Shown here piece by piece: positions 24,178-61,268 of a stretch of DNA of 64,000 bases (positions within the stretch are counted from its first letter, which is position 1; every line of letters starts with the position of its first letter). The notes under the pieces were generated by a model, which saw nothing but the letters and a program-made list of their open reading frames with translations, searched no databases and had not been told where the DNA came from. The position numbers and the translations under genes were made by a program. The DNA lies in the IMG/VR virus record IMGVR_UViG_3300037418_002568, positions 1-64,000 of that record; one strand, given 5' to 3'. This DNA comes from a virus (lineage: Duplodnaviria > Caudoviricetes).

Positions 24178-27100
24178 ACCCGGCCTCCGATTTCCTCGAC
24201 GATCACGTTGGGGGCCAGCGTGATTCCGGTCTGCTCACACAGCTGTTCCAGCTCGATGACAGCGTCGCCGGCGGGGCGTTCGAAGAACCCGACCACCTCC
24301 GGTTCGCCCTCGCGGACTTCGTCGGGGTAGAGGTAGACCACACCGCGGCCGCGTCGGTAGTGCAGATACAGGAACCGGCCGTCACGGCCCCAGGCATCCC
24401 ACTGCGTGGGGCCGGTCTGGATCGCCTTGACGATCGCGATCACGACAGCAGCTCGAGCAGGTCCGCGCCCATCTCGTCGTCGTAGTTGTCGGCGATGACT
24501 TCCTCGGTGCTGACGTCGGGGTTCGTGAGCAGGGACGCGGCGGCGTTGACGACGAAGTTCAGCATGTCCGTGGTGTTTTCGTCGCCCTCGGTGTCGAACA
24601 GTTCGCCGGTCATGTCGACGGCCGCGTTCACGGTCTTGTTGATCTGGTCGGCGGTGTAGGTCGGTTCCAGGGTGGGCGCGCCGTGGGCGTGGGCGTAGAA
24701 GTAGCCGCACCAGAAGGCGGCGAACGCCTTCTGCTCGTCGGTGAGCTGGGGGCATTGCTGGTTGATGGTTCCGACGGCCTTGGCGACGGCGTCGCGGTCG
24801 GCGGGGTCGAAGGTGACCAGGGTTTCGCCCGTGTAGCGGTGAAAGAGGTGGACGGTGCTGTCGGCCTGCTGGATCAGCCAGTCGCCGTCCGGGGACAATT
24901 GAGCCATCGTGTTTCCTTCTCGGTGGGGATGTTGGCGCATCCGGTGGTGTCAACCACCACCAATATTACGTTACATGTACAGGTTTTACAACGATGCCGG
25001 TTCGGTGTCGACGTCGGGCCCGCCCGGGATGAGCCGCAGCTTCGGCCGCGGTGGCGTCGCCTCCCGACCACCCTCCAACGGTTCGGCGCCCGGCCGCGCC
25101 TGCCGGTAAATCTCATCCCAATTCCCGGAGTAGTAGCGGCGCAGCACCCCGCCGGTGTTGGCCGGCGGGACCGGTTTCCCGTTGGCCACCCAATCCCGTT
25201 GCCGCTGCTCGTATTCGGCCCGGCACGGATGCTTGCGGTGCCGGTTACACAGCCCGACCAGAACGGCCTCGCCGGTGAGCGGGTCGCGGTCGAGCCACGT
25301 CTCCGACGTCCGTTTGCCGCACAGGCCCTCACGTCGGATCATCGGCGCCACGCACGTACAGAGGTCGGCCCGCCCCACGGGCTCATACCGGGGGAAATCC
25401 TTGGCGATGACGCTTCTGCTCCAGTACTTCAAGTGGTAGGCGCTGTTGCCGTGGGCCAGCTCCGCGGTCTCGACCGTCCAGTTCCTCAACGACCGGCGGC
25501 CCTGCTCGCGGCGGTTGGCCAGCACCTCGTCCAGGGCCAGACAGAACAGCAGCAGGTCACCGGTCAAGTCGGGGTCGTTGATCATGCGCCGCCGACGCTC
25601 GTCGCGGGCCATGATCGCTTTCAGGTCAGTGGCCATCGCGGTCGAGCAGCGGCGCCACGGTCGGACACGGCCACGGCATGTGGTTCCCGGTGGCCCAGGT
25701 GTGATGCTCGTTGGTTCGGCAACGGACACACCGTGTTTCGTAGCCGTCGCCGTCGTACCGCCTCGCCACGAACGGCGCGTGCTCGTCCAGGATCGCCCTC
25801 ATAGCCTTGTCGTACTTGGCGATCGTGGTCCGGCACCTGTCGTTGATGCTGCGAAGCTCACCGACCTCTTCGGTGAGGTCGGCGTACTCCTCCGCGCTGA
25901 TGAGGCGGCGATTCCACCAACTCACTGTTGTCCCTCCTTGAGCAGCTGTTCGGCGGTGCGGCCGTTGACGATCAGCAGGTGCGCGACCCGCTGAGCCACC
26001 TGCAACGCCGTCGTGAAGTTGAACCGGTACCGCGCCAACCATTCCTCCTCGCCTTCGGCGGGGACCCGGTTGTAGTCGCGCTGGTAGTTGGCGTCGTAGC
26101 ACCAGTGCATGTGCTCGACCGCGTACAGACCGTTCCCGCGGTAGGCGACGCGCACCGTGTAGGCGGGGCAGTCGTCGTGGCTCTCGGGCAAGCACGACAT
26201 CTCCACGACGGCGGTGACGAAGTGCTCGATCACGACTCGTCCTCCACCCACAGCGAAGCCACCACGAATTCCTCACCCGGGCGGGCGTACTCCTTGGCGA
26301 TCTTGCACGACGTGTCGGCGCCGTGGCGATCCAGCACTCCGGCAAGGGTTTCCAGGCCTTGGGGGCGGCGGCGCACCACCACGTGGCCCAGCAGCTCTCT
26401 CATATCCATTTCTCCAGTTCAGTGATGTAGGCCAGCGCGTCTCGCAGCGCGCCCTCCACCGTGACGGCCCCGCCGCGGCCCAAGATGCCGGTCGGGTCGA
26501 TCGTCTGGTACGCGGCGAAGGCCATATCGGCGCACTTGGTGCGCAACGCCTCGATACGGTCGTAGTCCGGTGCCGGCAGGTCGGGCAGCGCCAGATCGAA
26601 ACTGTCGGCCGGGACGCCGGTCATGGAGGCGATCAGGTCGCGGGCCCTCGGCTCGATCTCGTGCCGGCCGCGCGCCTTGGCGGCGCAGTCGATCGCGGGA
26701 ACCTTGATCGCCCACGCCGATTCGTCGCGGAAGACCTCGACGGTGTAGGTCGGTCTTTCGTTGGCGGCCAAGGTGATCCAGCGAGCCCCGTCGTCCAGGT
26801 CTTCGATCAGCTCGAACATCGAAAGCGCGTCGTGGTTGTCGGCGGGGTGTTCTTCATGGGCCCACCATCCGCCGGTCGGGCAGTCGAGCCAACGGATTCG
26901 GCCGTTGCAGCGCACGCAGGTGGAGGTGGTGTCGTCGCTCATCGGGTCGGGTCCGTTTCGGCGAGGGGGCGTTCGTAGGGCCAGTGCCACTCGGGCCAGT
27001 CAGCCGCGGCCGGAACGGTTCTCGGCGGCGGGTCGTGGTGGATGTGGACGTGGAGGAATCGGCGCAGGACAGCGGGGGCGGTCACAGTTCCACGGTTTCG

Positions 27101-29300
27101 TACTTGCCCAGGCGGGTGCCCAGCTCGATGATGCGGGCCTCGTCGCGGCGCTGCTTGCCCGCGATCCGCGCCCATTCCTTCTCGCGCTCGGCGAGGTGGT
27201 AGTCGCGTTCGGCGGCGAACCACGCCGCCCACTGGCGGGCCAGGGTCAGTTCGTCGGTCTCGGGGGTGGTCGGTTCGGTCATCTGGTGTTCGTTTCCTTC
27301 TCGGTGTTGGTGTCCCGGCATTCGGCGCATATGCCGGAGGGGAGGCCGCCGGGCCCGCCGAGTCCGAGGCGGACGGTGACCCGCCGGAAGCGGTGGCAGC
27401 GTTCGCAGAACCCGTGCAGTTCCAACGACTTTCCTTTCGATCAGTAGCAGCGGATGCTGGTCAGCTCGGCGTCGGGGCTCTCCTGGATCCACGCACCGCC
27501 GCCGTTTTCCTGCGCGCGGCGCAGGTCGGCGTAGACCTGCAAGGCCTTGTTCACCACGTCGGTCTGGTTCTCGCCGGCGGCCTTCATGGCGTCGTTGAGG
27601 CCTTGGGTCGCGGGTGCGGAAAGGTTGACCGTGAGTCGTTTGACGTATTTCACTGCGTCGCCTCCTGTGTCTGCCAGCTGCGGGGCTTGAGCACCTTCTC
27701 CATCAGCTCTTCGGCGTAGGTGGTGACGGTGTCGTGGTAGTCGCCCCGGTTGGGGATGGCGTCGTAGACCGTGCCGTCGTTGATGTCGACGCGCAGACGT
27801 TCGGTGTCGCTGGCGTGGGTGTCGATCTGGATCACCATCGCGCCGTCGAGGCTGCTACGGAACGCGGTGATCGTGGCCAGGGCGGTTTCCGATCCGTCGC
27901 CGACGGGATCGGGCCCGTACACCTGCACCTCCCCACCGGGGATGGTCACTTCATTGTTGGGCATGTGTGGCGTATTTCCTTGTGTGTCAATCGTTGTCGT
28001 GTGCCGCAAGCCATCGCTTGGCGCGCTCGTTGGGGCACAACTCGCCCGGCTTGATGTCGTAGAAGTTGTGCATCTGGCAGCTGCCGTTGTGATCGAAGCT
28101 GCACGGCTCGTCGCTGACGGAGATCCCGATCAGCTCGGCGGCCTCTGTGAGGGCTGTGCGGGCGCTGCGCAGTTCGCTGGCGATCGCACGCACCGTCTCG
28201 CCGGGCACTCCCTTGGCTATGGAGTCGATGAGCGCGCCGAGGTCGTGATCGTCGAGATAGGGCGGGCTGTACGGATCAGGCATCGACTGGCGCTTCCGGG
28301 TGCGGCTCCCACTCCAGGCCGCCCTCCCACTCCACGCCGCCGTCGATGGTGGCTTCGTATCGCTGTTCCCACCCCCGCACCCGGAACGTGCCGACCTCGG
28401 TGGGCCTATCGTCGTCGGGGCCCTCGACGTACTGGTAGCCGGTCAGACAGTCGTAGTAGTAGGCCTCGATACCGTCGACGAGTTCGCGCGGACACGTCGG
28501 CAGGTGGTGCACGACGTATTGCGGCTCGTCGCCGTCGAGTTCGACTGTGGCGGTGTGCCATTGGTCGGTGACGCGGGCGCTCACCCGGGGTCCTCCATTT
28601 CGTGTGTCGCTGTGTTGGTGATGTCGGGGCCATCCGGCGGCCGCCTTCGCTGAGACGGCGGCCGCCTGGTGTGGTTGCTCACCGCTGGTCCTCGGGGCCG
28701 AGGATTTCAGCCAGCCCGGCGTCCAGGTCCAGGTGTTGCCCGAGCTCGTCGATCAACGCCTGGTGCCCTTCGCGTAGCCTTTTGTCGACCGCCGCCACCT
28801 CCTCGGCGGTCGGTTCACGCGCTTCGCCGGTGCTGGACACCGCTACGGCCCTTCTGGCGCGCATTGGCTTTGGTCACCTTGCGGGCGGTGGAGCGTTTGG
28901 CCGCGGTTTTGCGGGCCTCGGCCCTCTTCTGTTCCGCCTGCGTTTCGGCTTCCTTCTTGGCCGCCACGTCCGGGGGAAGCGTTTTGGGGGCCTTGAAGCC
29001 TTCCTGCGCGAGCCGGTACGCGCCGAGCGCGAGTTCGTCGACGCCGCCCTTCTGCTGATAGCCGGGCTGGTACTTCATGCGCGTGGTTTCCGACGACATG
29101 AACCGGCCCCACCGGTCGAGCCGGCGGCGGCGTTCGGTGCCGCACTCACGCAGGCAGACGTAGTCGTAGAAGTAGTAGGAGCCGTCGTCCAGGATCTCTT
29201 TGCCCGAGTTGACCGGATCGCTCCACTGGTGGTTTTTCTGGCCCCGGCATTTGAGGCCGACGTCGGGCAGGGCGTTGAAGTTGTTGCGTGGCGTGCTCAT
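24174..29300 (-). other. block of small phage hypothetical genes
   Basis: tightly coupled ORFs, e.g. 24440-24908, 24986-25637, 25922-26236, 26400-26943, 27441-27653 (RHH-like), 27987-28283, 28276-28584, 28815-29300. Confidence 0.55.
24963..24991 (-). promoter_or_regulatory. SigA-type promoter TTGTAA-N17-TAATAT
   Basis: one of four copies of the same consensus, each preceding a CGCCAA hairpin leader. Confidence 0.7.
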
Positions 29301-31036: not shown

Positions 31037-31561
31037 TCACAGTGACGATTCGCCGTTGGGGTAGAGCAGTTCGTCCTCCACCAGCATCAGGTCGTCCGCG
31101 GCCATCGCGGCGCGCTGCTCCTCGGTCAACCGCAAATCCTCGGGCCAGTCGTAGCCGTCGTCGGCGGCCAATTTCTCGACGAACGCCAGAATTTCGGGAA
31201 ACGTATTGGTGGAATCGAACAGAAGATCGGCGTCGTCGCGGTCGATTCCGAGCAACGTACGCGCCGCCACCGACGGCCGCGCTGCCAGAAACGGCTTCGG
31301 CGAACCTTCGCTCATTTCGAACTGCGTAGGGTGGGCGATGTGACTCAACGCCGAATTCTCCGGCACCACCACGAATTGATCCCAGAGACGATCGTGGAGA
31401 CGCAAGAATTCATACCCCGACGCCACGACCGCGTGGCCCGCAAAGCAATACGACGTTCCGCATTCGTTGATATGCGCCCACATCGCCTGATTCCAGGAGC
31501 GGGGATCGGCTTTGATCCGGCGAATCACCGACTCCATCAACGGCCAGTTACCGACTCTCAT
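31037..31561 (-). CDS. CGTxxCxAGH-motif protein, paralog 3
   Basis: NWPL...IKADP.SW.Q...ECGTSYCFAGHA shared with two upstream ORFs. Confidence 0.75.
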   Translation of the reverse strand: MRVGNWPLMESVIRRIKADPRSWNQAMWAHINECGTSYCFAGHAVVASGYEFLRLHDRLWDQFVVVPENSALSHIAHPTQFEMSEGSPKPFLAARPSVAARTLLGIDRDDADLLFDSTNTFPEILAFVEKLAADDGYDWPEDLRLTEEQRAAMAADDLMLVEDELLYPNGESSL

Positions 31562-32097
31562 TTCGTCCTTCCCAGCAGTTCGGCTTCGACTTCGAGCAGC
31601 TCAGCGACATCCTCTTGGCTTCTGGGCGTCACAAGGGCGACCTCCACGCGGGTGCGCTGCCTGGGGGTGAGTTTCAGGTCCGCGGGCCATTCCACACCGT
31701 CTCCGAAAGCCCAGTCTTCGAGCATCAGCAGAATTTCACCGAAAGTGAGATGGGCATAGAACAGCTCTTGGGCGTCGTATTCGTGGATGCCCAGCACAAT
31801 CCGTCCCGCCGTCTCCGGCGGAATCACGTTGCACTGATTGAACGCCGAATACCAGCTCTCGCTATAGAGCGGCGAATTTTCAGTGTCGGGGGCCACCACG
31901 TACTCGTCGTCGACTTCGCCGTCCCCATAGACGAGGAACTGAAATCCCGATTTGACGATCGCGTGACCGGCGACGCAATAGGTGGTGCCGCATTCAGTGG
32001 CCTTCGCGTACCGGCCCTGATCGTAGGACTTCGGGTCGGCTTTGATACCGCGAATGACCTCGATCATCAAAGGCCAGTTATCGACTCGCATTGTCAT
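31558..32097 (-). CDS. CGTxxCxAGH-motif protein, paralog 2
   Basis: NWPL...IKADP...ECGTTYCVAGHA. Confidence 0.75.
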   Translation of the reverse strand: MTMRVDNWPLMIEVIRGIKADPKSYDQGRYAKATECGTTYCVAGHAIVKSGFQFLVYGDGEVDDEYVVAPDTENSPLYSESWYSAFNQCNVIPPETAGRIVLGIHEYDAQELFYAHLTFGEILLMLEDWAFGDGVEWPADLKLTPRQRTRVEVALVTPRSQEDVAELLEVEAELLGRTK

Positions 32098-32701
32098 CCT
32101 TTTCCGGATTCAGCAGGGCGGCGACGGCGGTGTCGTCGAGCTCCAGCAATTCCTTCGCCGCCTCGCGCACCGGCGCGAGCGGGTCCGGCAGCAGCAATTC
32201 CGCGTCGATCGCGCGCAGGACACGAACGTCACGGGAGACCTCCACGCACACCTCCACGGCGGCACGGTGCTCGGGGCTCAGCGTCAGGTCCGCCGGCCAG
32301 TCGACGCCGTCCTCGCGGGCCCATACCTCGGCCAGGTACAGGATCTCGGCGAAGGTGTTCCAGGCGAAGAACAGTAGGTTGGCGTCGTCGATGTCTTCGA
32401 TGCCCAGCACGTGCTGTCCGACGTCGAACGGCTGCGCCACGTCCTGGGAGTAGTCGATGTCGTAGGTGGCGATGTCCTGCAACGGGGACCCGGCCGGGAT
32501 CAGCACGGCGTGGCCGTCGAGGAGGCCACTATCTTCGATGGGGAAGGTGTATCCGCTGGCAATGATGGCGTGTCCGGCGATGCAGAACGCGGTCCCGCAT
32601 TCGGGGCGGCCGATCGCGTAGTGAAGCTGGTCCCAGGAGGCGGGATCGGCTTTGATGCCGCGGAGTATCTGGATCAGAAGATCCCAATTCTTAATTCGCA
32701 T
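32078..32701 (-). CDS. CGTxxCxAGH-motif protein, paralog 1
   Basis: NWDL...IKADP...ECGTAFCIAGHA. Confidence 0.75.
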   Translation of the reverse strand: MRIKNWDLLIQILRGIKADPASWDQLHYAIGRPECGTAFCIAGHAIIASGYTFPIEDSGLLDGHAVLIPAGSPLQDIATYDIDYSQDVAQPFDVGQHVLGIEDIDDANLLFFAWNTFAEILYLAEVWAREDGVDWPADLTLSPEHRAAVEVCVEVSRDVRVLRAIDAELLLPDPLAPVREAAKELLELDDTAVAALLNPEKDDNASR

Positions 32702-33757
32702 TACAGAAAATGTCCATTCAGGATTTTTTGAGGTATTCGACTCGCAATGCCGGGCCCCATTGGGCCTGGGCGACTTCGAGGCAGTCTTCGCACACGTACC
32801 GCTGTGTGGTGGTCACGAAGGCGCGCATGATGATCAGCGCGACCGCCTCCGGTGGCTCTTCCTCGTTGTTGGGGTGGCAGCGGCATTCGCAGGGCGGGGT
32901 GTAGTCGAAGTCGAGGTGATCGAGACATTCGACGATGTCGGCGGTGGGTGCGCTCACGGGTCGGTCTCCTTGGGATGGGTTCTTCTCATCGCAGGTGCAG
33001 TCCGTCGGCGGGGCACTGGTGGGCGCGGGCGGCCTCGGCTACGGCGTAGTGGTCGGGGCCGTGTTCGGACCAGTCGCACAGCGCGCAGTGGGCGAAGCGC
33101 CAGCCGGAATGGCTGCCGTCCCAGACCGTTACGTGGGGTTGGGCGAGGTCGAAGCTGGGCCAGCGGTTGTCGCGGGTGACGCGGAAACGGAAGGCGTCGA
33201 TCACCTGTTCGGTGGTCATCTCCAGCTCGGCGGCGCGTTTGACGGCGATATGCCAGGACTTCCACTGATCGTGGGTGACGGCGTCGCCGAGGGCCTGTAA
33301 GACGCCCATGACGTCGGCGAGGGTGCCGGAGGCTTTGTGGCTGCTGCCGCTGTCGGGCAGGGTATCGGGCATTGAGGTTTCCTTCTCGGAGCCCCTGGCC
33401 GGTGTTGGCGCACCGGCCAGGGGTGTGGTGATGGGGTGGAAGCCTATTCGGGCTTCTGGAGGATCTTTTCTTTGGCCTTGTCGATGTAGATCAGCTGGGT
33501 CTCCAGGCCGTCCAGCCACAGGTTGACGGCTTGGCCGGCGGGGCTGGTGCGCCACGATTCGGGCTTGGCCTTGTACTTGGTGTAGCCGTCTTCGATGAAC
33601 TCGGACAGCGCGGTCCGGGCGGCGGACAGGTGCTCGTCGATGTCGCAGAATGTGTCATCGGGCATTGCGAATTGGGCCACGGGGTCCCTTTCTGTGTTCC
33701 TTCTCGGGCTGCCACAGCCGGGAGTTGGCGCTCCCTGGTGTGGCTTCAACGACACCA

Positions 33758-33786
33758 ATATTACATACCACCACAAGGTTTTACAA
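33758..33786 (-). promoter_or_regulatory. SigA-type promoter TTGTAA-N17-TAATAT
   Basis: same consensus as 24963-24991. Confidence 0.7.
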
Positions 33787-35656: not shown

Positions 35657-35658
35657 GG

Positions 35659-36381
35659 TCAGACTCCTCTGCGATCACCCCACGCGAGCACGTGCAGGCG
35701 ATGGGTGGCGTTGATACATAGGTCGGCGGCGCGGCGCGCGATGGCGGGCCAGCGGGCCTGGAGCTCGTCGACGGTGCGGCCTTGGGGCATCACCCAGATG
35801 CGGTCGCGGGGCCAGTCGACGAGCTCGGCGTAGGTGTAGGCAGCGTCTACGTCGGCCTCGGTCTCGACGACGAACTTGAGCACCGTGGCGGCGGCGAGAG
35901 CGGATTCGGAATGGACCAGGTCCACCCATGCCGGATGTAGCGTCGGGTCCTGGTGGCGGCGGTGCTGGCCCGCGTTGGCCAGCTTGGGGGAGATGGTGGC
36001 CGCGTTCAGGTAGGCGCGGGTCACCTGATTGGGTGGCAGCGTCCCGTTGGTCTCCAGCTGGATCGGGCAGTTCTTGCGCCGGGAGATGCCGTGCAGCAGC
36101 AGCTCCCACGCGGGCCGACGTTGATGCATCAGCGGTTCGCCGCCGGTGAGCACGGTCAGCAGGTTGGGCCGCACCATCGACAGCGCCACATCGACGCGGA
36201 CCCGCGGGTTCTCCTGTTCCAGGTCGTAGTGTTCGTCGTCCCACGTGTAGGGGGTGTCGCACCACGAGCACGACAGGTTGCAGCCACCCAGGCGCACGAA
36301 CTGCGCCGCCCGCCCCGCCAGCGGGCCTTCGCCTTGGATGGTGGGCCCGAACACCTCCGAGACGGGCAGCAGGTCGCTCAC
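35659..36381 (-). CDS. queE: 7-carboxy-7-deazaguanine synthase (radical SAM)
   Basis: TIQGEG, CNLSCSWCDT, TGGEP, ETNG, SPK. Confidence 0.93.
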   Translation of the reverse strand: MSDLLPVSEVFGPTIQGEGPLAGRAAQFVRLGGCNLSCSWCDTPYTWDDEHYDLEQENPRVRVDVALSMVRPNLLTVLTGGEPLMHQRRPAWELLLHGISRRKNCPIQLETNGTLPPNQVTRAYLNAATISPKLANAGQHRRHQDPTLHPAWVDLVHSESALAAATVLKFVVETEADVDAAYTYAELVDWPRDRIWVMPQGRTVDELQARWPAIARRAADLCINATHRLHVLAWGDRRGV

Positions 36382-46136: not shown

Positions 46137-46186
46137 TGAGTTTTCCTTCTCGGTATGTGGTGTGGGTGTTGGCGCACCCATGTTCT

Positions 46187-46215
46187 ATGTTACAGACCTT
46201 GACAAGGTTATACAA
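46187..46215 (-). promoter_or_regulatory. SigA-type promoter TTGTAT-N17-TAACAT
   Basis: same promoter family, precedes a CGCCAA hairpin leader. Confidence 0.65.
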
Positions 46216-48321: not shown

Positions 48322-48525
48322 ATGCCCCGCTACCCGCACATCACCGTGCCCCTGGACCTGGACGGCGAAGGCGGCAACGCCCTGGCCATCCTGGGCCGCA
48401 TGACCCGCGCCCTGCGCACCGCCGGCGTTGACCGGCCCACCATCGCCGACATCGTCGACGAAGCCACCAGCGGCGACTACGACCACCTGCTGGCGACCGT
48501 CCGCGCGACCGTAACCACAAAATGA
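48322..48525 (+). CDS. conserved small phage/plasmid protein (GNAxxILG...SGDYDHLL)
   Basis: recognisable motif pair, strong GGAGG SD. Confidence 0.7.
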   Translation: MPRYPHITVPLDLDGEGGNALAILGRMTRALRTAGVDRPTIADIVDEATSGDYDHLLATVRATVTTK

Positions 48526-51419
48526 CCGGCCAAACCGGTGTTGGACCGTAAAAAGTCCGGCACCGGGACGGGCTGGCGCAGGAAAAACTACAGACCGAGC
48601 ACCGTCAACACACGTTGACGACACAGGAAAAAAATTCCGCCAAACGTGTCGTGTGCGCGTCCGCTTTGGCTGGTCGTTTTTCCCCTTGATCGTATTGTGT
48701 TGTGGCCGTGAGGTTTTCGGAACCGCGCGCGCCCCCGTACTACCACACTGTGTGTTAGTCTAGACGGGTACCAAACACCCCCCACCGGGGGAAACCGGTA
48801 CCGAACCACCCCCCGTGCGCCAACACGGGACCCCTTTTACCGAGAAGGAACCACCACCATGACCGAACTTACCTACGTCGGCGAACTGTCCGACGAGGTC
48901 GTATGGGACAACCGGGCCGTCGAGTACTGCGACTCGATGGACGCCGGACGGCCCTTGACCGTGGCCGCGGCCAAGATGATGGACCGATACCTGGAGTGTC
49001 CGGCCTGTCACAAACCGCGACCGGCCACCTTCACCGGGGAGCGCGTCGTGTTCGGCAACGGCACCCTGCCCACCGTGACGCTGTCCTGTGGCCACTACAT
49101 GACGTTCTGACCGAGCGGCCGTAAGCCTGCGACATCGACCCCTGTGGCCGGTGTCGGGGGCTGGCAGCCGACCGAGCCGCCACCCGTGGCGCCAACCACG
49201 GGGACCAACCACCGAGAAGGAAACCCTGACCATGACCACCACCGGATCCGGGTCGCTGTATGCCGGCGTCGTCGGTACGGCCGAGCTGACCGAGGCGCAG
49301 GCTGCGACCGTGCGCTACTGGCTGCACAGGGCCATGCGCCGCATCGCCGACGACGGTGTCAGCCCGCTCGACATCACGCCGGACGAGCTGCGTCAGACCG
49401 CGGCCCGCATGATCGCGACCGAGCTGGAAATCTTCACCCACACCCCGACCGAGCTGGACCACCTGCACGCGGTGCTGGCCGTCCTCGACACCGAGGGGGG
49501 CCACCGATGACCAACCTGGACGTGTCCCTGCTGGACACCGTGCGTGCAGCCCTGGGCATCGACGACACCGAGGAGTCGTGGCAGGCCGAGGGCGTGCCCA
49601 CCGAGTTCCGGCGGTACGTCGACCGGGCCGCGCAGTCACTGCTGACCGAGCCGGGCCCCGAACCGCGTGCCGCCGTCGTGACCCCGCGGCGGGTCTGCGA
49701 GCGGGCCATCGGGCTTATCGACCGCGACATGGTCGGCCAGCACGGCTGGCGGGCCCACGTGCTGACCCAGACACGTCGCCTGTTCGCCCGCGTCGGCTGA
49801 CCGAGGAGCCACCATGCCCGCTATCGCCACTGTCTACGAGGAGCTTGACGCGGCCGTGCTGGACGGCATCACCCGCTTGGGTGTGGGTGCCCCGCGCAAC
49901 GAGGTCACCGCGGTGCAGGACGCGATCACGTCGCTGTACCGGGCGCAGGGCCTCGTCACCGATCGGCAGTGCGCGGCCATCGTCGAAGCCGCGTTCAAGT
50001 CGTCGGAACGTCGCGTCCGCGAGACCGCCCGGCGCTGACCGAGCCACCACACCGATTCCGGCTAGGAGAGCCATGGAAACCATCGACATCACACCGGACC
50101 CCGACGGGATGATCCGGTGGGCGAAGCAGGGACTGCGCGAAGCGCCGGCCGACAGCAACGACGCCCGCGTGTTCCGCAAGGTCCTCGCCGAGTACGGCAT
50201 CACCGACGAGGCCGCCCCGACCGAGCGCTGATCCGGCCGTGCGCCTCCCGTACCGATGACCGAGCGTCGTCGGTACCGGGTGGGCGGGTGGCCGGACCAC
50301 CCACCACCAGTCCCGCGCCAACGGGACCAACCGAGAGGGAAACACTCATGCTTTACATCGAGACCGCCTGTGCCAGCACCCTGCTCCACATCGCCCACAG
50401 CGAGCCGTTCGCCGACCTGCAGATCGGGTGGCCCGACGGGCACCTCGTCATCACCCCCGAGGCCGGTGGGCCCACGGCGGCGACCTACATCCACACCGTG
50501 GCCGCGGTGCTGGCCCAGATGGACCGGCGCTGTGACCGCACCCCGGACCGGCGGCCGGTCGACGAAGTGACCGAGCAGCTGACCCAACGCATCTGGGTCG
50601 ACGCCGTCTGGCGAGGCGAGGGCTGGGTGGAATTCCCCGCGCTGCTGGTCATCGACGACGAGACCGTGCCGGCACTGACCTAGTCGACCGCTTGCCTCCC
50701 ACGCCGACCGATGTCGGTGTGGGTGGGTTGGCCGCCGACAGCGACCACCGAAATGCCTGTGCGCCAACACGGGCCCAACACCGAGAAGGAGACCACCGGC
50801 AATGGACACCCACGACAACCCGCTGATCGGGTTGGTGCTGCCGACCGAGCTGCGCGACACGTTCGACGTGTACGACTCGATGAACGAGGCCATCGCCCGC
50901 ATGACCCGGCCGATGGCGTCACCGAGCGACGTGCTCGGGCTGACCCCCGACGCGATCCGCCAGACCACCATCGAAGTGCTGTGTGAACGCGCGACCGAGC
51001 AACACGAGGAAGGCTGGCGGCACGGGTACCTGCGTTACCTCGACCTTGCCAAGCAGCTGTCTGCGTTCGGGCGCAACGAGCCGTACGCGGCCGACGTCGT
51101 CGCGGCGACCGAGGAACTGGAGGGCTGACCGTGACGCTGTTCGAACAATGCACCGGGGGTGCGGAGCTGACCCCGCACCAGGCTGCCATCGCCCGCCGGT
51201 GGCTGCACGCCGCGGCCCACGAGCTGGCGCGCGAACCCGACGGGGTCACCCTGCTCGACGTCGAACCCGACGCGTTGCGGGACCGAGCGGCCGCGCTGCT
51301 GACCGACGACATCGACTTCGGGCCCCCGCGCCACGACGACACCTACAAGGTGATGGCGTCGGTGTTGAACGTGCTCGACCCGGACTAGGTTCCGGTCTGA
51401 TCACGCTGTCCATCATCTC

Positions 51420-51448
51420 TTGTAAAGTCTGTACGTAGTCCGTAACAT
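51420..51448 (+). promoter_or_regulatory. SigA-type promoter TTGTAA-N17-TAACAT
   Basis: same promoter family, precedes CGCCAA hairpin at 51464. Confidence 0.7.
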
Positions 51449-54400
51449 AGTTGGTGGGGATGACGCCAAACATCCCCACCACCACACCCGAGAAGGAAGC
51501 CATCATGCCCACCCCCCGCACCACCCCGCTGGTCAAGACCGAGCCCACCGTGCTCGACGACATCCTGCACCTGCCCCACCTGCCCGGGACCGACGAGGCC
51601 ATGCGCAACGACATCCGCCACTACGCCGGCGGGGCCATCGCCAAGCTGGCCGTAGGCACAGCCCAGCGCGACTACTTCGGTCTCAACGCCAAGGCCATCC
51701 GCCGGGCCACGACTCTCGCCCTGACCGAAGCCGCCTACGACAAGATCGCCGATGGCGACACGCAGCGCGGCGACGAGCTGATGTGGGCGGCCAACGTCCT
51801 CGCCGGTGTCGACGGCGAAGACTCCTGACCGACCACCAGCCTGCCCACCACCGACCCCTCCTCCTCCGGTGGTGGGGAGGGCTGGCCGCCGGACCTACCG
51901 AGCAGCCACACCGAACACCCGAAACCCTTGTGCGCCAACACAAGCCAACCGAGAAGGACACCCATCATGACCGAGACCGTCGACCCGATCGAGGACGCCG
52001 TCATCACCGGGGCCTGCGCCACCGCCCACGCCTACCGCTGCTCGCCCGCCGTGTGCGGCTACGAGGCCATCGCGTTCGGGCACTGGTACGTCCGCCACGG
52101 ACGGCCCGAAGGCCGGTCCCTCGACCTGGGGGCGGCCATGTACGACCAGCGCTACCGCGACCTCGCCGCCGGGTTCGGCCGGATGAGCGAAGACACCATC
52201 GGCACCGACCTGCGCCAACGTCTCGCCATCGCCGACGCCCACCCCGGCTACCTGAAAGGGGTGCGTCGGTGAGAACCACCTACACCAGCGACCACGGCAC
52301 ACGCACCGTCGGCCGACGGCGGGTAGTCGACCGCGGCTGGGTCCGCGCCGACATCCTGACGACCAGCGACGGCCGCACCGACCGCCAGGATGTCCACGCC
52401 ACCGGCCGCAACGACCTCAGCAACGCCCACAGCGGCTACCACCCCGAGTGCGGGTGGTGCTGGCTCGGCTACCCCCACACCGAGCAAGCGCACGCCGCCA
52501 GAATCACCCCGCCCGCCTGACCGATTGCCTGCCCACCGCGCCCGGTGCGCGGTGCGCGGGTTGTCCGCCAGGACAACCCATATCCCAACCACCGAAAGAA
52601 GCAACCCATGAGCCAACCGACCGACGACCCGTTCGCGTCCACACTCGACGCCCTGCGCTCGCAGTGGGTCAGCCTGTCAACCGCTGGCGGCCGCTACGTC
52701 AGCGGCGTGGTCGACAACGTTCACGACGGTGTGGTCACCCTGACCAACCGCGGCGGCGACATCATCCACCAGGTGCGTATCAACACCCTCGAAGTCATCG
52801 ACTACTGACCCCCGCACGCCAACAGGCGGGACCAACCGAGAAGGAAACAAACCATCATGACCGAGCCCATCGTCTACGACCGGCCGGCGCCGGACTGGCT
52901 GTATGTCGGCGCCCCCGTGGTCACTATGCGCCGCTGGTCGGGCCGCACCACCGGCGTCGCCCGCACCGAGGTCGCCAAGCTGACCAAGCGAGACATCGTC
53001 CTCGCCGACGGGCAACGCTTCCGCCACGACAGCCAATCGACCCGTTTCGGTGGTGACGAGGTGTACTACATGCGCAGCAACCACAGCTACGAGTACACCT
53101 ACCTGCACGCGCCCGACTCCAAGGCTGTCGCCAACCACAAGGCGGCCCAGGAGGAGGAGAAGCTCAAGAACCGTGTGTTCCAGGCTGCCCGCGACCTGAG
53201 TGGCGGCTGTGTGGACCGGGAGCGTATCGACGCCATGGCCGCCGTCATCGACGAATGGCGCGCCGCCGCCCACCCCGAGAACGCGGATGACGCAGGGGGC
53301 GCGACCCGCGACTACGACAGCCTGTATCGGGCCATTCAGGCCGGGGTGGAGCATGTGATCGACGGGCAGGACGAGTGGAAGAAGCTGACCCGCGCAGAGC
53401 TGGTCGACAAGATGATGACCATGCATCGGGCAGGGCTGAACCCGCGCATCTCCGAACTGGTGGTGCGTCTCGCCTCCACCCCGGAGGAGGTCTAACCGTG
53501 GCACGCAAATACACCGTGGACTGGTCCGACCAGGCCTTCCCCGAAATCCAGGTCCACGAGCCCACCGAGCACGACCCGGGGCAGACGTTGGCCGAGGCGA
53601 AGCGCGAGATCATCGACCACTTCACCTTCGAGATCCAGCACGCCCGCGACCGGATCGCCGCCGCCCGCGCTGTGCGCGCCTCCCAGATCGAGCAGGAGGA
53701 GGGCTGATGGCTCTGCAACGCAAGCCGCGGTGGTGGCCGGGCGTGTGGTGGTACTGGGGACCGTTCACCACCCTGCGCGCCAACCTCCTGCCATGGATGG
53801 GCAGCGACGGCAACGACACATGGTGTCGGCAAACGATCGCCGTGCCGCTGTTCGGTGTCGGCGCCATCGTGATCGGGCTGCGCTGGCACCTGCTGGCCGA
53901 ATGCATGGCCAAGTACGGAGACCTCGAATGAACCTCGCGACGATGATCGGCCGCCGCGCCTTCCGTGGACCCGCCTGCGACCACGCCTCACACGGGTGCC
54001 GGTGCTTCGAGGTCGGCGGGCCGCACAGCCGCAAGCCATTGAAGCGGCGGGCCAAGGTCGCCGAACGGCGGCGCACGGCCCGCAAGATCGCCACCGAAGC
54101 CAGGAACGGAGACAACGAATGAACATCGAACAGTTGCGGGCGATACCCGAACACGTGGCGATTGTCTCGACCGAGGGCAGCCACGCCATATTCCAAAAAC
54201 GCAAGGGCGACAAGTGGATTGCCGCCCACCCCGGGGCGGTGCAGACCACCTCGGAGGGTCTAATGGAGGGCCCGTACCGCGGCCGGTTCCGGGTCATCTA
54301 CCGGCCGCCGATGAACCGGTTCACCGTGGTGGATCAGGTGACGGGCGAACAGATGTTCCCGCTGCGTGACCCGTTCGACTTCGACGCTGCCGTGTCCGCG

Positions 54401-56569
54401 TGTGCCGGGCTCAACAGCGAGCCGGGCGCGGGTGGCCGCTACAACGTCCTGCGCGACGGTGAACGCATCCCGATCGACGACCCGATCTGGAGCAGCTGAC
54501 CGGTTGCATCATCCCCGGCTCGTCCCGGGGGTGGTGTTGCCCGCCAGGGCAGCCCGTGCGCCAACACGGGCCCTCACTACCGAGAAGGAAAACATGCCAT
54601 GACCACTATGGACACCCTCACGCCCGGCCAGAAGGTCGAGCTGCAGTACTGCGCCACCCGTGATGGGTACGTGTCGCTGCTGTCGGAGGCCACCGCCACC
54701 TACTTCGTCAACTACGGCGAGGTCGAACCCGGCCAGGTCCACCAGCGCTACGCGTTCTTCCGTACCTGGATGCCCGAGGGCGGGATGCACGAGTGGAACG
54801 CCACCAAGATCGGCGGCCGCTGGCTGTGGGACATCCGCCACGGGGGCGTGCTCAAGGTGACCGAGCAGGAGGTGGCCGCCCATGACGCGGCGTAAGACCA
54901 CGGCCACCACCAGGACCCGCTACCAGCGCACCAACCGGTGGATCGACCGCCGGCAGGTGTTGTGCGAGTGCTTCGCCCGCGACCCCGAGGGCCGCTGCCG
55001 TGTCTGTGGCCAGCTCATCGACGACACACCTCACCCTCCGGCCGTCCGCGGCGGGTTCGGGTGGATCTACGAATACGCCAACGGCTCGGTGCACCGCACC
55101 TAGCCATCATCGCCACGAAAGAAGAAGGATATGAAGTTCATCGGGGACGCGCTGACCATGCGCGAACAGATCACCACCAAGATGTCGGGCCCACAGTCGG
55201 CCGGGCGCTGGAGCCACAACCGCACCGAGTTCAACGGCGACCTCATGGTCGAGGTTGTGGGCGCCATCTTGACCTGGGCCGGGCCGCGGTGGCGCGGCTC
55301 GTGGGAGGTGTCCGCCCACGGGTCGGTCTCCATCGACATCTCGCTCACCGAGCTGTACCGGCTCAAGGTCACCGTGACCAAGCAGGCGCAGGTGTCGGCC
55401 CTCCAGATCGACGAACCGATGCCCAACCCGCCCGCCTACCTGACCCGCCCGACCCGCAACCGAGCGGTCGGCCGCAACAAGGATGCGACCTGGGGTTGGC
55501 AGGACGGCGAGGTGATCCCGAAGCCGCGGGAGTACACCGCGTTCATCGAGGCGTGGCTGAACCAAGTCAACGCGGCGGTGACCGATGCCGAGGCCACCGC
55601 CTACCACCTCCACACCTCGCGCACCTATCTGGAGGCCGCCGACCACCGTGTCGAAAGGGCGGCCGAGGAGCTGAAGTGGGCGACCCAGAAGCGGCAGTTC
55701 TGGCAGACCATCGTCGATGACCTGACCGAAACCCTCGCCCAGCAGCAGACCGCGGCGGAGGTGTGACCGTGGGACAGTATTGCCAGTACTGCGACCGTCG
55801 GTGCTTCGTGCCCAACCCGCTCAAGCCCGGGTGGCTGCTGGCCACCTGCACCGAGGGGATGGCCCACGACCGGCGCGCCGCCGGCTACGACATCGACACC
55901 GCCCGCGACATCGTCGCGCTGCGCGTCACCGAGGCCATCGAACCCGAGTTGCCGATGACGCGGCCCGACCGAGCGCGGGCGGTGTATCAGTTCTGCCAGC
56001 GCATCCGCGGCCAACGCGAGGAGGTGTACCTGCCCAACGATTCCTACGTGGCGGGCGAGTTCGGCTGGCCCAACACCGCGGCCCGCGCCGCGCTGCTCGA
56101 CCTGGTCGCCTCCGGAGCCCTGGCGACGCGTGGCATCTACCACCGGGTGCTGGAGTGGGACGGCCGCGTCACCCTCGCCACCGCCCCGACCATCCCCGTG
56201 AAGGAGCAGTCGTGAACCGTATCGACTTGGACGAGCTGCGCGAACGGGCGATCGTGGTCGACGAGCACGGGCAGGGGTTCCAGAAGCACGGCCGCAAGGC
56301 GTGGGAGTTCTGGTACGCCGCCAACGGCGAACAGTTCCAGATCGAACACGACTCGAAGTGCTGGACGTCGCTCGGGCTGGCGCGCGACTTCGAGGGGCTG
56401 CGCCTGGTGTGGCAACCCGACGCCACCTGACCGGTTGCCTCATCCCCGGGGTCTGCTCCCCGGGGGTGGGGTTGCCCGCCAGGGGCAGCACACCCGCGCC
56501 AACGGGTGACACCTACACGAGAAGGAACACAGATGACCGAACACAACAACACGGCGGGAGAATCGACCG

Positions 56570-56806: not shown

Positions 56807-57201
56807 CCGCGGCGCCGGCGTCGGCGAAGCCGGGCGAGGTCGACTTCACCCCCGCGAACCCGTCCTACCGCTACGAGGGTGAGCACGGCATCTTCACCGG
56901 CGACGCTGTCTACGACCCGGCCAACTACCGGCTGATGTGGTCGTTGCGGCTGTCGGACTCGGTGCGGGCGATCGTGCTCGGCGACATGGCGTGCAGCGCC
57001 ACCGTGGACGGCAAACGCGGCTACAGCGACAACCACCCGGTAGTGCCCAGCAACTACCAGTGGCATTCGATCGTGCCGAACCTGCAGCTCGACACCCCGT
57101 ACCGGTTGGTCGCCAGCTGTGGGTTCACCGCGCAGAACGGATCCACCACCGCGCCCGGCCGCGTGGACTACACGGTGGCGTTCACGCTGCACTCGGCCTG
57201 A
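56755..57201 (+). CDS. secreted protein
   Basis: AGGAGG SD + TTG; signal peptide ...VAVLVAVLTAAPASA; two Cys. Confidence 0.55.
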   Translation: MSGLAYTVGVAVLVAVLTAAPASAKPGEVDFTPANPSYRYEGEHGIFTGDAVYDPANYRLMWSLRLSDSVRAIVLGDMACSATVDGKRGYSDNHPVVPSNYQWHSIVPNLQLDTPYRLVASCGFTAQNGSTTAPGRVDYTVAFTLHSA

Positions 57202-57899
57202 CCGGTTGCCTCACCACCGAGGGGTTCGCCTCGGTGGTGGGGTTGCCCGCCAGGGCGCACCCCCGCCAAGGGGTGTCATCTACACGAGAAGGAAACCGAC
57301 CGATGAAACCACCGGCGAACTGCTACCGGATCATCCGCAAATGCGTGTGCAGGAGAGTGCACACCCACTACTACAGCACCCGCGACATGCGCGACGCGCA
57401 GGCGGCTCGGTGGGCAGACATCGACCAGAACGATGTGATCCTCGAATTCTGGCACCCCGACCACAACCAAGACCGGCTAAACCGGGGCTGGGCGTGCGAC
57501 GGCGTGCAGTCTCCGCAACCGCGCCGGACCGCCATCGTGAACGACACCGAGGGGGCGTGAAGCACATGCAGGAGTGGCAGGCACAGCAGCTCCGCGAGCT
57601 CGAGGACCAGATACGGGAACACCGTATGCGTGCGCTGATCATGCTGTGGCTGGTCGGCTGGATATTCGCCACCGGCATCGGCATCGTCGCGTTGGCCACG
57701 AGTATCGCCGCCCTGATACCCGGCCACGTGCCCGGGATCGGATGGTGGTCGCTCGGGCTGTGGATCGTCGCGGCACTCATCGGGTACGGGGCCTCCTGGT
57801 GCTGGAGGAACGCGTGATCATCGGCTGGGATACCGATGTGTGGTTCGACCGAGACGACCCCAGCGAGTACAGCTGGCCCGACGACGAGGACGAGCGCGA

Positions 57900-58268: not shown

Positions 58269-58269
58269 C

Positions 58270-59323: not shown

Positions 59324-59363
59324 ACGGTCACCGTAGTCGAGTGGGACGACACCCGAAACGAAC

Positions 59364-59521: not shown

Positions 59522-61183
59522 CTACAGTCCGCGGGCGAAGTCGGAAACCAGCGTCGGCACCGCGGCGTCGAGGCCCGCGATGTCGAGCATCCCGGCGTCG
59601 GTCGGGTCGGCGATGGTGAAGTTCGTGGCGGTCATGGCCAGCACGATGAGCTTCGCGTTCGGGTTGACCCGACCCCGGTACTTCGCCAACGCCTGGTGTG
59701 GATGCTCGGTGCCGTACCACGTTTCGTTGTCGGTGATGACTACGAACGTGTCGATTTCGAGGCCCTGGGTCAGGGCGTACTGCATGGGCAGCGCGCAGTC
59801 GGTGTTGCCGAACGGCAGCCCCGACACCACCCGCACCGCGTCGGAGAGTCGCTGGCGCGGAGAGATGGCCAGCTCGCGCAGCGCGGTGCCGTACCCGGTC
59901 CAACCGCCGCGCTGGCTCGGCGAGCCGGCGGTAAATCCGACGATCTGGTGGCGGGGCTCGGTGTTGGCGATGACCAACGCGAGCGCCGCCGCCGCCTCCC
60001 GGGCGGTGATGTTGAGGCCCGCGCAGTTCGCACTCCCCATCGACCCGGAGACGTCGAGGCCCAGCAGCCACCGCTTGCCGGTCGGCTCGACCGCCGGGTA
60101 GGCGCGGTAGAACGCATCACCCAGGGCGTCCACGATCGTCGCCGCCGGGTTCCAGGTGAGGTTGCGGTTGCGGCCGAGCTCGTAGGAGCGCTGGGCCAGC
60201 AGCAGCCAGAACGGGTGCACGCGGCCCTTACGCAGCCGGTCGGCGTCGCTGAGCTGGGCGGCGACGGTGGCGGTGCGGTCCGACAGCGGCGACAGCAGCC
60301 CGAGGGAGGTCAGGCGCGGCAGCTGACGCACCAGCGCCGTCTGACCCATCCCCGCATCGAGCAACGCCTCCCACACCGCAGGGGTGGCCAGCGACTCTTC
60401 GGGCAGCATCTCCCAGGTGAGCCGGTACTGGCTGATCAGGTTCGGCAGGTCGGCGACCTTGGCAGTGCGCGCACGCTGGTACCCCTCGACCAGCGTGAGC
60501 CCTGTCAGGTCGGCGGTCTGCCCGAAGCGCGGGGAGCGCGGGTTGCGGCCCTCGGCCTCGATGGCGATCCAGTCGTAGAGGCGGCGGTGCTCGTCGCTGG
60601 CGGTGTAGCCGGCGTCGTGGGACAGCATCAGCAGCTGGCGGTGCGAGCGGCGCCCGCGGTGTCGGTACTTGAGCACCTGGTAGGCGAGGTCGTCGATCGG
60701 CTTGTTCGCATACCAGCCGGCGACCGCGCGGCGCACGGCGCGACCCCAGCCGCGGAACTGTTCGAGGTAGTCGATGAACTGGAACAGGTGGGTGCCGGTG
60801 CGCGCGACCAGCGGTAGCGCTTCCAGCGCGGTGCGCCGCCCGTACTCGTCTTCGCTCAACGAGGCGGCGGCGGCCAACGCGAACAGGGCCGGGTTCTGCT
60901 TGGGGGCGCGCCCGGCCACGGAGATTTCCACGATCTCGTTGACCAGGTATTCGGTGCGGGTGCGGGCGAAGTCCATCACCACGGCCGCGTTCTCCTTGGC
61001 CAGGTCCTTGGCGCCGACGTAGTAGGTGCCGCCTTCCACGCCCAGGATCAGGAACCGGCGCAGCCGGGATTCGGGGGTGACTTCGAAGGTGAATCCGCCA
61101 GCGTTGTTGGGCACCTGGCGGGGGTCGGCGGCCTCGGACTGCGGCGTGGTGCGCAGGTTGATCGAGGACAGCACATCGCTCAT
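59522..61183 (-). CDS. rsr: Ro60/TROVE domain RNA-binding protein (Rsr)
   Basis: NNAGGF, RFLILG.EGGTYY, GWGR, KYR.R, vWA MIDAS DVSGSM, TDC, TDNET, IADP.D. Confidence 0.95.
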   Translation of the reverse strand: MSDVLSSINLRTTPQSEAADPRQVPNNAGGFTFEVTPESRLRRFLILGVEGGTYYVGAKDLAKENAAVVMDFARTRTEYLVNEIVEISVAGRAPKQNPALFALAAAASLSEDEYGRRTALEALPLVARTGTHLFQFIDYLEQFRGWGRAVRRAVAGWYANKPIDDLAYQVLKYRHRGRRSHRQLLMLSHDAGYTASDEHRRLYDWIAIEAEGRNPRSPRFGQTADLTGLTLVEGYQRARTAKVADLPNLISQYRLTWEMLPEESLATPAVWEALLDAGMGQTALVRQLPRLTSLGLLSPLSDRTATVAAQLSDADRLRKGRVHPFWLLLAQRSYELGRNRNLTWNPAATIVDALGDAFYRAYPAVEPTGKRWLLGLDVSGSMGSANCAGLNITAREAAAALALVIANTEPRHQIVGFTAGSPSQRGGWTGYGTALRELAISPRQRLSDAVRVVSGLPFGNTDCALPMQYALTQGLEIDTFVVITDNETWYGTEHPHQALAKYRGRVNPNAKLIVLAMTATNFTIADPTDAGMLDIAGLDAAVPTLVSDFARGL

Positions 61184-61268
61184 CGGGTGGTTCTTCCTTC
61201 TCGTAGGCCCCGGGGTCGTTGGCGCGACCGGGCGGGGCGTGGTGGTGTGCAGGGCGAGACGGGCGTGT

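Follow-up and report, generated by a model that had tools for sequence, protein, structure and literature searches.

What a small hairpin with an unvarying loop is doing in front of the ribosome-binding sites of 21 mutually unrelated phage genes is the question raised by this locus. The window, i.e., the whole stretch of DNA analyzed, at its full length of 64,000 nucleotides (nt), is the first 64 kb of a single contig of 97,881 bp (IMG/VR record IMGVR_UViG_3300037418_002568), which represents an uncultured, siphovirus-type actinophage from a soil metagenome with a guanine–cytosine (GC) content of 62–72%. An earlier reading made from the letters of this DNA (hereafter, the sequence-only reading) had described 17 copies of a leader hairpin with the loop CGCCAA, each followed by a Shine–Dalgarno (SD) sequence and a start codon. 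The leader hairpin is confirmed as a real element whose stem is selected for pairing and whose loop is fixed, and 21 copies are found in the genome. As to its role, the element is proposed, with confidence that stands at about even, to be an RNA operator beside the ribosome-binding site, defining a post-transcriptional regulon and bound by a putative, probably phage-encoded factor.

Anatomy of the leader module

The module has a constant order of hairpin, spacer, SD tag of the form (C/A)CGAG(A/G)(A/G)GGA, and start codon. The stem is 4–13 bp long, mostly 5–7, and its closing pair is G-C in 18 of 20 aligned copies, while the loop CGCCAA is unchanged in all 21 copies, those with enlarged loops included. 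The spacer measures 4–15 nt in all copies but the one at 72048, in which it is 44 nt long. The tag reads (C/A)CGAGAAGGA in 17 copies, GAGGAGGA in two, GAGAGGGA in one, and GAGAAGGAG in one, and the start codon, ATG in 20 copies and GTG in one, follows 5–17 nt past the tag. The spacers consist of 51% C, 24% A, 15% G, and 10% T (170 nt in total, counted in 18 copies, i.e., all but 72048 and the two with enlarged loops) as compared with 34% G and 33% C in the genome, a strand-asymmetric composition that is expected for a stretch held unpaired in RNA.

The stems of 22 hairpins comprise 134 Watson–Crick pairs, one G-U pair, and one A-C pair. Folding of 10 leaders gave the hairpin in every minimum free energy (MFE) structure, and most of these structures left all or most of the SD tag unpaired. 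Between the tag and the 3′ end of 16S rRNA, the predicted pairing energy is −6.6 kcal/mol in 15 of 21 leaders, and the predicted SD strength has a mean of −7.5 (standard deviation 1.7) in the leaders versus −8.0 (standard deviation 3.5) in 162 other genes.

Copy number and covariation

At all 17 positions given by the sequence-only reading, CGCCAA was found on the strand named there, each time within an inverted repeat followed by a purine-rich tag and a start codon; the stem sequences it quoted are correct, and the enlarged loops it noted at 51464 and 52817 are present. The hexamer occurs 90 times in the window as compared with 47.8 ± 5.8 times in shuffled sequences, none of 100 shuffles reaching 90. 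The whole genome has 146 CGCCAA, and the length of the stem that directly closes them is bimodal, being 0–3 bp in 123 and at least 4 bp in 23. Nineteen of these 23 are intergenic leader copies, and the other four (79858, 87027, 89295, and 92986) lie in coding sequence without an SD tag. Two further leader copies, 51464 and 52817, retain CGCCAA within enlarged loops and bring the total to 21, of which 17 are in the window and four beyond it, at 66472(-), 67336(-), 72048(+), and 76128(+). Of the 4096 possible hexamers, CGCCAA ranks first as a loop with a closing stem of at least 5 bp (18 cases); the next, its reverse complement excepted, has 10.

Two tests bear on the claim of the sequence-only reading that the stems covary around a fixed loop, and both uphold it. 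The first is blind to the stem, its sites being every CGCCAA with GAGRRGGA no more than 60 nt downstream. The 23 sites so defined include 19 strict hairpins and two with enlarged loops, while the other 123 sites include four hairpins (Fisher p = 2e-16). In the second, 20 copies were aligned without gaps, seven pairs were proposed, and the columns were shuffled 500 times. Pairing was observed in 86.4% of the cells as compared with 50.8 ± 3.1 in the shuffles, none of which reached the observed value; changes on both sides were seen in 44 cells and at all seven stem pairs, and shifting the 3′ partner by 1–3 columns lowered pairing to 32–43%. The inner four pairs are biased because the copies were chosen partly by their stems, a bias that the stem-blind test answers. 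A covariance model (R1) built on the same 20 copies scored them at 21.7–33.9 bits, the next best site in the genome (18.3 bits) being within the portal gene.

Genomic setting

The gene map is a codon-usage prediction of 183 genes with three starts corrected by hand, in which the non-structural part extends from 24.4 to 80.5 kb and the remainder forms the virion and lysis parts. Each of the 21 copies lies between genes and in the sense orientation relative to the following one, with copies on both genome arms, in agreement with the description of the hairpin as always sense and just upstream of an SD tag and a start codon. Among genes with an upstream gap of at least 40 nt, the hairpin precedes 21 of 45 in the non-structural part versus 0 of 25 in the virion and lysis parts; with shorter gaps, the figures are 0 of 69 and 0 of 44, respectively. 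The virion regions thus have no copy, as the sequence-only reading had remarked, and its term "genome-wide" is to be narrowed to the non-structural genes. The GAGRRGGA tag is found no more than 25 nt from the start of 25 genes, 21 of which also have the hairpin.

A scan for TTGTA[AT]-N17-TAA[CT]AT returned exactly seven sites in the genome, all intergenic and SigA-like. All seven precede a CGCCAA hairpin, with 12–65 nt between the −10 box and the loop, so that 7 of the 21 copies have a promoter of this class, always upstream of the hairpin. The distance from the upstream stop codon to the copy ranges from 2 to approximately 700 nt. Since the distance to the SD tag is constant and those to promoters and stop codons are variable, the fixed partner of the hairpin is the ribosome-binding site. 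The seven promoters are themselves near-identical, and their spacers also have CCTGTAC-like bases in common.

The genes downstream of the hairpin are mostly ORFans. A Pfam search of 20 proteins (17 hairpin-linked, the gene of a CGCCGA variant described below, and two neighbors) returned only Ro60 (TROVE and vWA_Ro60) and one sub-threshold match, and a PHROGs search of 20 of the 21 hairpin-linked genes returned three matches, all to families of unknown function. No hairpin-linked gene was paired with another hairpin-linked gene in an all-against-all blastp; the downstream genes being mutually unrelated, the element recurs independently of gene duplication.

Relatives and conservation

For 46–58 kb, megablast returned no match among 50,697 phage records; the best match of the portal protein is 53.8% identical (Gordonia phages), and homologs of a 351-amino-acid gene (65381–66436) are widespread at no more than 52% identity. 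Six other actinophage records of similar composition, used as negative controls (Gordonia phage Aleemily, Rhodococcus phage Jace, Mycobacterium prophage prophiGD54-2, Gordonia phage LittleMunchkin, and two IMG/VR contigs), gave the covariance model nothing above 17.4 bits. In IMG/VR, no related locus was found by the portal gene, and the one contig found by Ro60 (42%) has no hairpin copies; a pattern scan of the same database gave 91 stretches with one match each, mostly coding and chance-like, and no multi-copy contig. Likewise, eight stretches, all single matches, were obtained from 185,579 species genomes.

A pattern scan of metagenomes yielded 25 stretches, among which one is a true relative, a contig of 6,367 bp (L103). 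It is syntenic with 65.6–72.0 kb of the genome at approximately 50–60% protein identity (tblastx approximately 48–62% in the main segments; blastn 65–72%) and has the CGCCAA hairpin at all three orthologous leaders, at 24.1, 22.4, and 21.2 bits; it is the only scanned locus with more than one match to the model. In its leader of the 351-amino-acid gene, the stem GGTG/CACC of the phage is replaced by GATG/CATC, a compensatory change, and the tag has diverged as well. Another of these leaders, that of a small gene beside a repressor-like gene and next to a helix-turn-helix/metalloprotease pair, at genome 72030–72110(+), folds as a three-way junction with the CGCCAA hairpin as one arm. In the relative (approximately 240–335(-)), the outer stem and the second arm of this junction keep their shape (z −2.9 and −4.2), while the sequence of the second arm differs.

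Other candidates were rejected. Single good-stem matches before start codons in low-GC contigs (L110/L117 and L128) are at chance level after such a scan and have no second copy, and the one contig matched by an 18-nt probe taken from the three-way-junction copy is unrelated, has 50% GC, and contains no other copy. A contig approximately 98% identical to the phage was found in soil run X2, and it differs by block replacements.

Proposed function

If the element is an RNA operator, the hairpin would be a cis-acting part of the mRNA leader marking one class of non-structural, probably early, translation units, their early timing being suggested by the SigA-like promoters. In it, a short, stable, almost purely Watson–Crick hairpin displays the invariant CGCCAA loop, and behind it come a G-poor, C/A-rich, presumably unpaired spacer, then a ribosome-binding tag CGAGAAGGAA of uniform moderate strength, and then the start codon. 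One sequence-specific factor would read the loop approximately 20–45 nt upstream of each start codon and, once bound, would determine ribosome access, mRNA lifetime, or both, for the 21 units jointly; at about −20 to −45, it could impede or assist the 30S subunit or shield the message. We infer both the action as RNA and the existence of a trans-acting factor from sequence. The combination of free stems with a fixed loop and a fixed SD tag points to a folded single strand, rather than double-stranded DNA, as what is recognized, and six invariant loop bases, kept in enlarged loops and in the relative, call for a sequence-specific reader. The motif being restricted to this phage lineage, such a reader is more likely to be encoded by the phage than supplied by the host. 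The fuller version of this reading, in which the hairpin would be the operator of a new phage RNA-binding protein that switches approximately 21 early messages at the ribosome-binding site in a temperate actinophage, is put forward tentatively and held at somewhat less than even confidence.

Several points weigh against a phage protein acting on RNA. With one G-U pair against one A-C pair, wobble pairs give no proof of RNA over DNA. No RNA-binding, sigma, or antiterminator family was found among 25 of the 38 Pfam families of 113 other genes, and the hairpin-linked proteins give no candidate for the binder, Pfam naming only Ro60 and PHROGs only families of unknown function. The conservation of the element is seen in a single short relative (6.4 kb), and the gene map on which the setting is judged is our own codon-usage prediction with its three manual corrections.

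Two small, very basic, Cys-containing open reading frames (ORFs) are present in the small-gene array, at 54882–55103(+) and 53928–54122(+), one with an Arg-rich N-terminus followed by CxC...CxxC; the Arg-rich N-terminus is that of ORF 54882–55103. Neither has a homolog in the 50,697 phage records, and both are possible nucleic-acid binders, named here as guesses only. The sequence-only reading had pointed instead to a cold-shock-domain-like ORF at 56570, which is more likely part of a 222-amino-acid frame that starts at 56533 and has no Pfam match.

If a phage protein does bind the loop, the element would define a new post-transcriptional regulon over early genes, phage Ro60 included, and the start-associated leader motifs of actinophages, for which an explanation has been lacking since 2011, would for the first time become open to mechanistic study. 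A further gain would be a compact orthogonal hairpin–protein pair, i.e., an RNA tag and its binder, for high-GC bacteria such as mycobacteria, Streptomyces, and their kin.

Alternative explanations

The best placed of the alternatives, which we nevertheless consider unlikely, is that no dedicated factor exists. The hairpin would then be a cis element that insulates the ribosome-binding site, offers a standby platform to the ribosome, or, once the message has been cut between cistrons, caps it against 5′ exonucleases, and its loop would be fixed through contact with the ribosome or through a special loop fold. The unpaired C/A-rich spacer and the uniform SD (−6.6 kcal/mol in 15 of 21; standard deviation 1.7 versus 3.5) speak for it, as do the copies of the 47–58 kb array that follow terminator-like hairpins, for each cistron would then have a 3′ and a 5′ hairpin, and the two copies at a predicted transcript 5′ end (46169 and 51464). 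Six loop bases that are invariant in all 21 copies and in the relative, however, exceed what stability or insulation needs, and CGCCAA is kept even inside enlarged loops. Moreover, five of the seven promoter-proximal copies have 25–65 nt between the −10 box and the loop, often with other hairpins, and could not form a 5′-terminal cap there. As to ribosome contact, the loop complement TTGGCG occurs once in a 1,089-nt partial 16S sequence of Streptomyces, which is about chance, and Streptomyces may not be the host. Should the factor-free explanation be right, the element would represent a natural design of insulated ribosome-binding sites for high-GC messages.

Improbable, and more so than the preceding, is a processive antitermination signal of the nut/boxB or put type, a function that the sequence-only reading had considered, in which the hairpin would load a factor on RNA polymerase to pass terminator-like hairpins. 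The element is indeed a conserved-loop hairpin of early leaders downstream of promoters, and the many strong GC-rich hairpins right after the stop codons of the array might terminate transcription. The boxB-like function nevertheless fits poorly, because there are 21 copies and not one or two per operon, their spacing is locked to the SD at 4–15 nt and not to promoters or terminators, and the copy at 52817 begins 2 nt past a stop codon with no terminator nearby. The inter-cistronic hairpins have no U tracts, and a terminator scan of 44–62 kb found no sense-strand terminator at the copies. No common boxA-like flank was seen, and no NusG-, N-, or Q-like family is present among 25 of the 38 Pfam families. 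If a nut-type system did operate, ORF 54882–55103 may be a candidate for its N-like arginine-rich protein.

Lower again we place the idea that a phage antisense RNA targets the leader tag by pairing with the loop or with CGAGAAGG. The tag antisense CCTTCTCG occurs in two intergenic stretches with similar flanks, 41058–41078(+) and 19060–19080(-), and TTGGCG is found at 41155, 90 nt downstream of the CCTTCTCG at 41065(+), in the order that pairing would require. Against this, the genome has eight non-leader CCTTCTCG, two of them intergenic (41065(+) and 19071(-)), which is near chance; the local folds are no better than those of shuffles (z +0.6, −0.3, and +1.4), and no promoter or terminator was seen at those stretches on reading the sequence.

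The two remaining explanations are very improbable, and equally so. In the first, the module would be a mobile regulatory cassette that mainly provides short homologies for the shuffling of small genes, in the manner of the PeSL cassettes of T4-type phages described below. Copies do flank unrelated ORFan genes in a variable array, and in the X2 relative (~98%), one aligned block starts at 48275, 9 nt before the hairpin at 48284, but the other breakpoints (47985, 50014/50212, 54112, and 57807) are away from hairpins. Only approximately 8 + 10 bases are shared while the stems differ, which leaves little homology for recombination, and recombination explains neither the kept pairing nor the fixed SD distance. 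The second, a DNA-level signal in which a hairpin or cruciform in single-stranded or supercoiled DNA is read by a replication, modification, or recombination enzyme, agrees with stems that are Watson–Crick in 134 of 136 pairs, so that both strands can fold, and with the deazaguanine DNA-modification gene set of the phage (Pfam: QueC, FolE, PTPS, and radical SAM), but is opposed by an orientation that tracks the gene in 21 of 21 copies on both genome arms, by the tie to SD and start codon within a few bases, by the absence of the element from the 25 long intergenic gaps of the virion region, by the seven of seven promoters of one class that would transcribe it, and by a gene map that holds no RNA polymerase-sized gene, the tape measure aside.

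Comparison with known systems

No family of Rfam matches the hairpin: at gathering thresholds, Rfam 15 gave only a tRNA in the whole window, and at E ≤ 1 in 46–62 kb only sub-threshold YrlA and a tmRNA fragment, none of them at the hairpins. No description of a CGCCAA hairpin was found in a literature search that excluded supplements (among them the motif lists of the cluster K, EF, and O papers) and subscription journals.

The element appears to belong with the start-associated leader motifs of actinophages, among which a covarying stem around an invariant loop would be new. The start-associated sequence (SAS) of cluster K is an asymmetric motif at the position of the ribosome-binding site, conserved beyond what the SD needs and present in 11–19 copies per genome; it is oriented with the gene, occurs upstream of genes from various families, and frequently follows an inverted repeat (PMC3203893). 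Its function is unexplained, and a 2025 survey still asks for experiments (PMC12699233). In Microbacterium phages of cluster EF, ten motifs at the same position each have a linked upstream element around a well-conserved hexamer (Jacobs-Sera et al., 2020, PMC7302621). The present tag is like these in kind, (C/A)CGAGAAGGAA or a one-base variant standing 5–17 nt from the start of 21 hairpin genes and four others, but it differs from both published 13-mer consensuses (PMC3203893, PMC7302621). The extended start-associated sequence (ESAS) of cluster K is composed of two imperfect 17-bp inverted repeats with a derivable consensus and a variable spacer of 4–13 bp (PMC3203893). Here, the reverse is found, i.e., arms of 4–13 bp without a consensus beyond the closing G-C and an invariant center of 6 nt. 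The distinction from the cluster K sequences, which the sequence-only reading had already drawn, is thus borne out by an anatomy that differs from both SAS and ESAS.

The cluster EF phage AnnaSerena, of which 50,000 of 56,707 bases were examined, was compared directly. Its ESAS is a conserved, promoter-like block of approximately 45 nt, with a GTAGCGAAA-type box followed approximately 17 nt on by a GTATAGT/GTAGAGT box (e.g., 7864–7933, 36000–36054, and 47113–47182). It was rejected as having the same anatomy, since GTAGAG has no covarying flanking stems (best 3–4 bp) and no fixed-loop hairpin is formed.

Many copies of 17–18-bp inverted repeats are found in short intergenic gaps of cluster O mycobacteriophages and cluster EG Microbacterium phages (PMC4351075, PMC7302621), in the latter 14–22 bp upstream of start codons (PMC7302621), and their authors read them as sites of dimeric DNA-binding proteins (PMC4351075, PMC7302621). 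As described there, they have invariant arms and a variable center, unlike the element here, and those of cluster O follow no orientation rule. The PeSL cassette of T4-type phages combines a terminator stem-loop with a strong, sequence-conserved early promoter and acts in recombination (PMC2839356, PMC4122927). Judged by those descriptions, both are small, repeated stem-loop regulatory cassettes between small, non-essential early genes of variable regions; here, unlike PeSL, the loop and the SD are constant, the stems differ, and a promoter is present at 7 of 21 copies only and upstream of the hairpin.

The element is also unlike an intrinsic terminator, since a C/A-rich spacer and an SD come after the hairpin and seven copies lie 12–65 nt past promoters, and unlike a lambda-type nut site (boxA plus boxB), since its 21 copies are tied to an SD and share no 5′ flank. 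The coat protein operators of RNA phages, the targets of T4 RegA, and lambda N/boxB are classical cases in which a short hairpin or a site near the ribosome-binding site is read by one phage protein. Many early messages are under the control of RegA, whose sites are not known to be hairpins; each coat protein operator is unique in its genome and takes in the start codon, and nut sites occur one per operon. The likeness to these classical operators and nut sites is one of principle only, the element being set apart from them by their descriptions. Among the gene-start motifs of actinophages, it is the clearest structural case so far.

Individual copies in the window

The copies of the window are given below as read from the sequence, with scores in bits from the covariance model and promoters from the pattern scan. 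On the minus strand, the first module (24905–24942(-)) has the stem GGATG/CATCC at 24927–24942, a 5-nt spacer, the SD at 24914–24921, and ATG at 24907, and lies 25 nt past the −10 box of the promoter-like TTGTAA-N17-TAATAT at 24963–24991(-) (24.8 bits). The module at 33370–33423(-) has the longest stem, 13 bp at 33392–33423, with a 4-nt spacer, the SD at 33380–33387, and ATG at 33372; its hairpin forms in the MFE structure (z −5.5; 31.5 bits). Its neighbor at 33678–33735(-) has the stem GGGAG/CTCCC at 33720–33735, the SD at 33698–33705, and GTG at 33680, 27 nt past the −10 box of TTGTAA-N17-TAATAT at 33758–33786(-) (25.8 bits). The module at 46134–46180(-), with the stem TGGGTG/CACCCA at 46163–46180, the SD at 46144–46151, and ATG at 46136, precedes the first of three tandem paralogs (29.1 bits); since its loop at 46169 is 12 nt past the −10 box of TTGTAT-N17-TAACAT (46187–46215(-)), the hairpin lies at or near the predicted 5′ end. 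The Ro60 gene has its own module at 61181–61229(-), with the stem GGTCG/CGACC, the SD at 61195–61202, and ATG at 61183 (23.8 bits).

On the plus strand, the array begins with the best-scoring copy, 47252–47292(+), which has the stem GGCGGTG/CACCGCC, the SD GAGGAGGA at 47277–47284, and ATG at 47290 (33.9 bits). The next, 48284–48324(+), shares the SD GAGGAGGA (48309–48316), with the stem GGCACCG/CGGTGCC and ATG at 48322, and is preceded by a long GC-rich terminator-like hairpin (28.6 bits). The next two stems are CCCGTG/CACGGG in 48812–48861(+) with the SD at 48842–48849 and ATG at 48859 (31.0 bits), and CCCGTGG/CCACGGG in 49183–49234(+) with the SD at 49214–49221 and ATG at 49232 (27.5 bits). 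The module at 50310–50350(+) has the stem GTCCCG/CGGGAC, the SD GAGAGGGA at 50333–50340, and ATG at 50348 (27.2 bits), and that at 50755–50804(+) has GCCTGTG/CACGGGC, which contains the sole G-U pair seen, with the SD at 50783–50790 and ATG at 50802 (27.6 bits).

The first copy with an enlarged loop, ACGCCAAA, occupies 51452–51507(+) and has an 11-bp stem, the SD at 51490–51497, and ATG at 51505; its loop is 15 nt past the −10 box of TTGTAA-N17-TAACAT at 51420–51448(+) (23.0 bits). The second, with the loop ACGCCAACAG, occupies 52811–52859(+), begins 2 nt past the upstream stop codon, and has the stem CCCGC/GCGGG, the SD at 52838–52845, and ATG at 52857; it falls under the reporting limit of the model. 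Between them, 51927–51969(+) has the stem CTTGTG/CACAAG, the SD at 51951–51958, and ATG at 51967 (28.2 bits). The copy at 54552–54601(+), with the stem GCCCGTG/CACGGGC, the SD at 54582–54589, and ATG at 54599, has a terminator-like hairpin and a mini hairpin with a GCCAG loop before it (29.9 bits). The last two of the array are 56491–56535(+), with the stem CACCCG/CGGGTG, the SD at 56519–56526, and the ATG at 56533 of the 222-amino-acid frame (27.7 bits), and 57257–57305(+), with the stem GCACCCC/GGGGTGT, the sole copy closed by C-G, the SD at 57286–57293, and ATG at 57303 (23.3 bits). Beyond the window, promoters of the same class are found at genome 66530(-), 67407(-), and 76060(+).

A degenerate variant is present at 27280–27337(-), where a 7-bp stem CCGGCAT/ATGCCGG with a 9-nt loop containing CGCCGA (27315–27337) is followed by an SD tag and the ATG of a 66-amino-acid ORF; it has no match to the model at E ≤ 10. 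A CGCCAG variant at 52556–52581 scores 16.0 bits.

Neighboring features

In the 47–58 kb array, most copies are preceded by a long GC-rich hairpin that starts just past the stop codon and has no U tract. The small genes at 47.5–57.3 kb are separated by cassettes (e.g., 54497–54551, 56432–56490, and 57200–57256) in which the stop codon, CCGGTTGCC, a GC-rich hairpin of 13–15 bp that lacks a U tract, GGGGTTGCCCGCCAGGG, and the CGCCAA hairpin come in this order; GGGGTTGCCCGCCAGGG forms a mini hairpin with a GCCAG loop, and such a mini hairpin stands before the copy in three cassettes.

The sub-threshold Rfam matches to YrlA (Y RNA-like) are at 61265–61393(-) and 61698–61771(-), with 38.3 and 25 bits, respectively, against a gathering score of 69. 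They lie just upstream of the phage Ro60 gene; the leader hairpin of this gene comes immediately downstream of the first match. A palindromic operator-like site, ACTACCACA-NN-TGTGGTAGT, is found at 46582, 47172, and 48742, i.e., in the divergent control region at 46.2–47.3 kb and before the gene at 48859, and is probably a repressor site.

Tandem paralog sets, 28–47% identical, were seen at 31037–32701(-) and 44243–46136(-), with three copies each, and from 63454 of the window to 64671 of the genome (-), with four. Finally, the two contig ends, 17–343(-) of the window and 97771–97872(-) of the genome, encode the same 33 residues at 97% identity; this overlap indicates that the assembly is probably complete, circular or terminally redundant.

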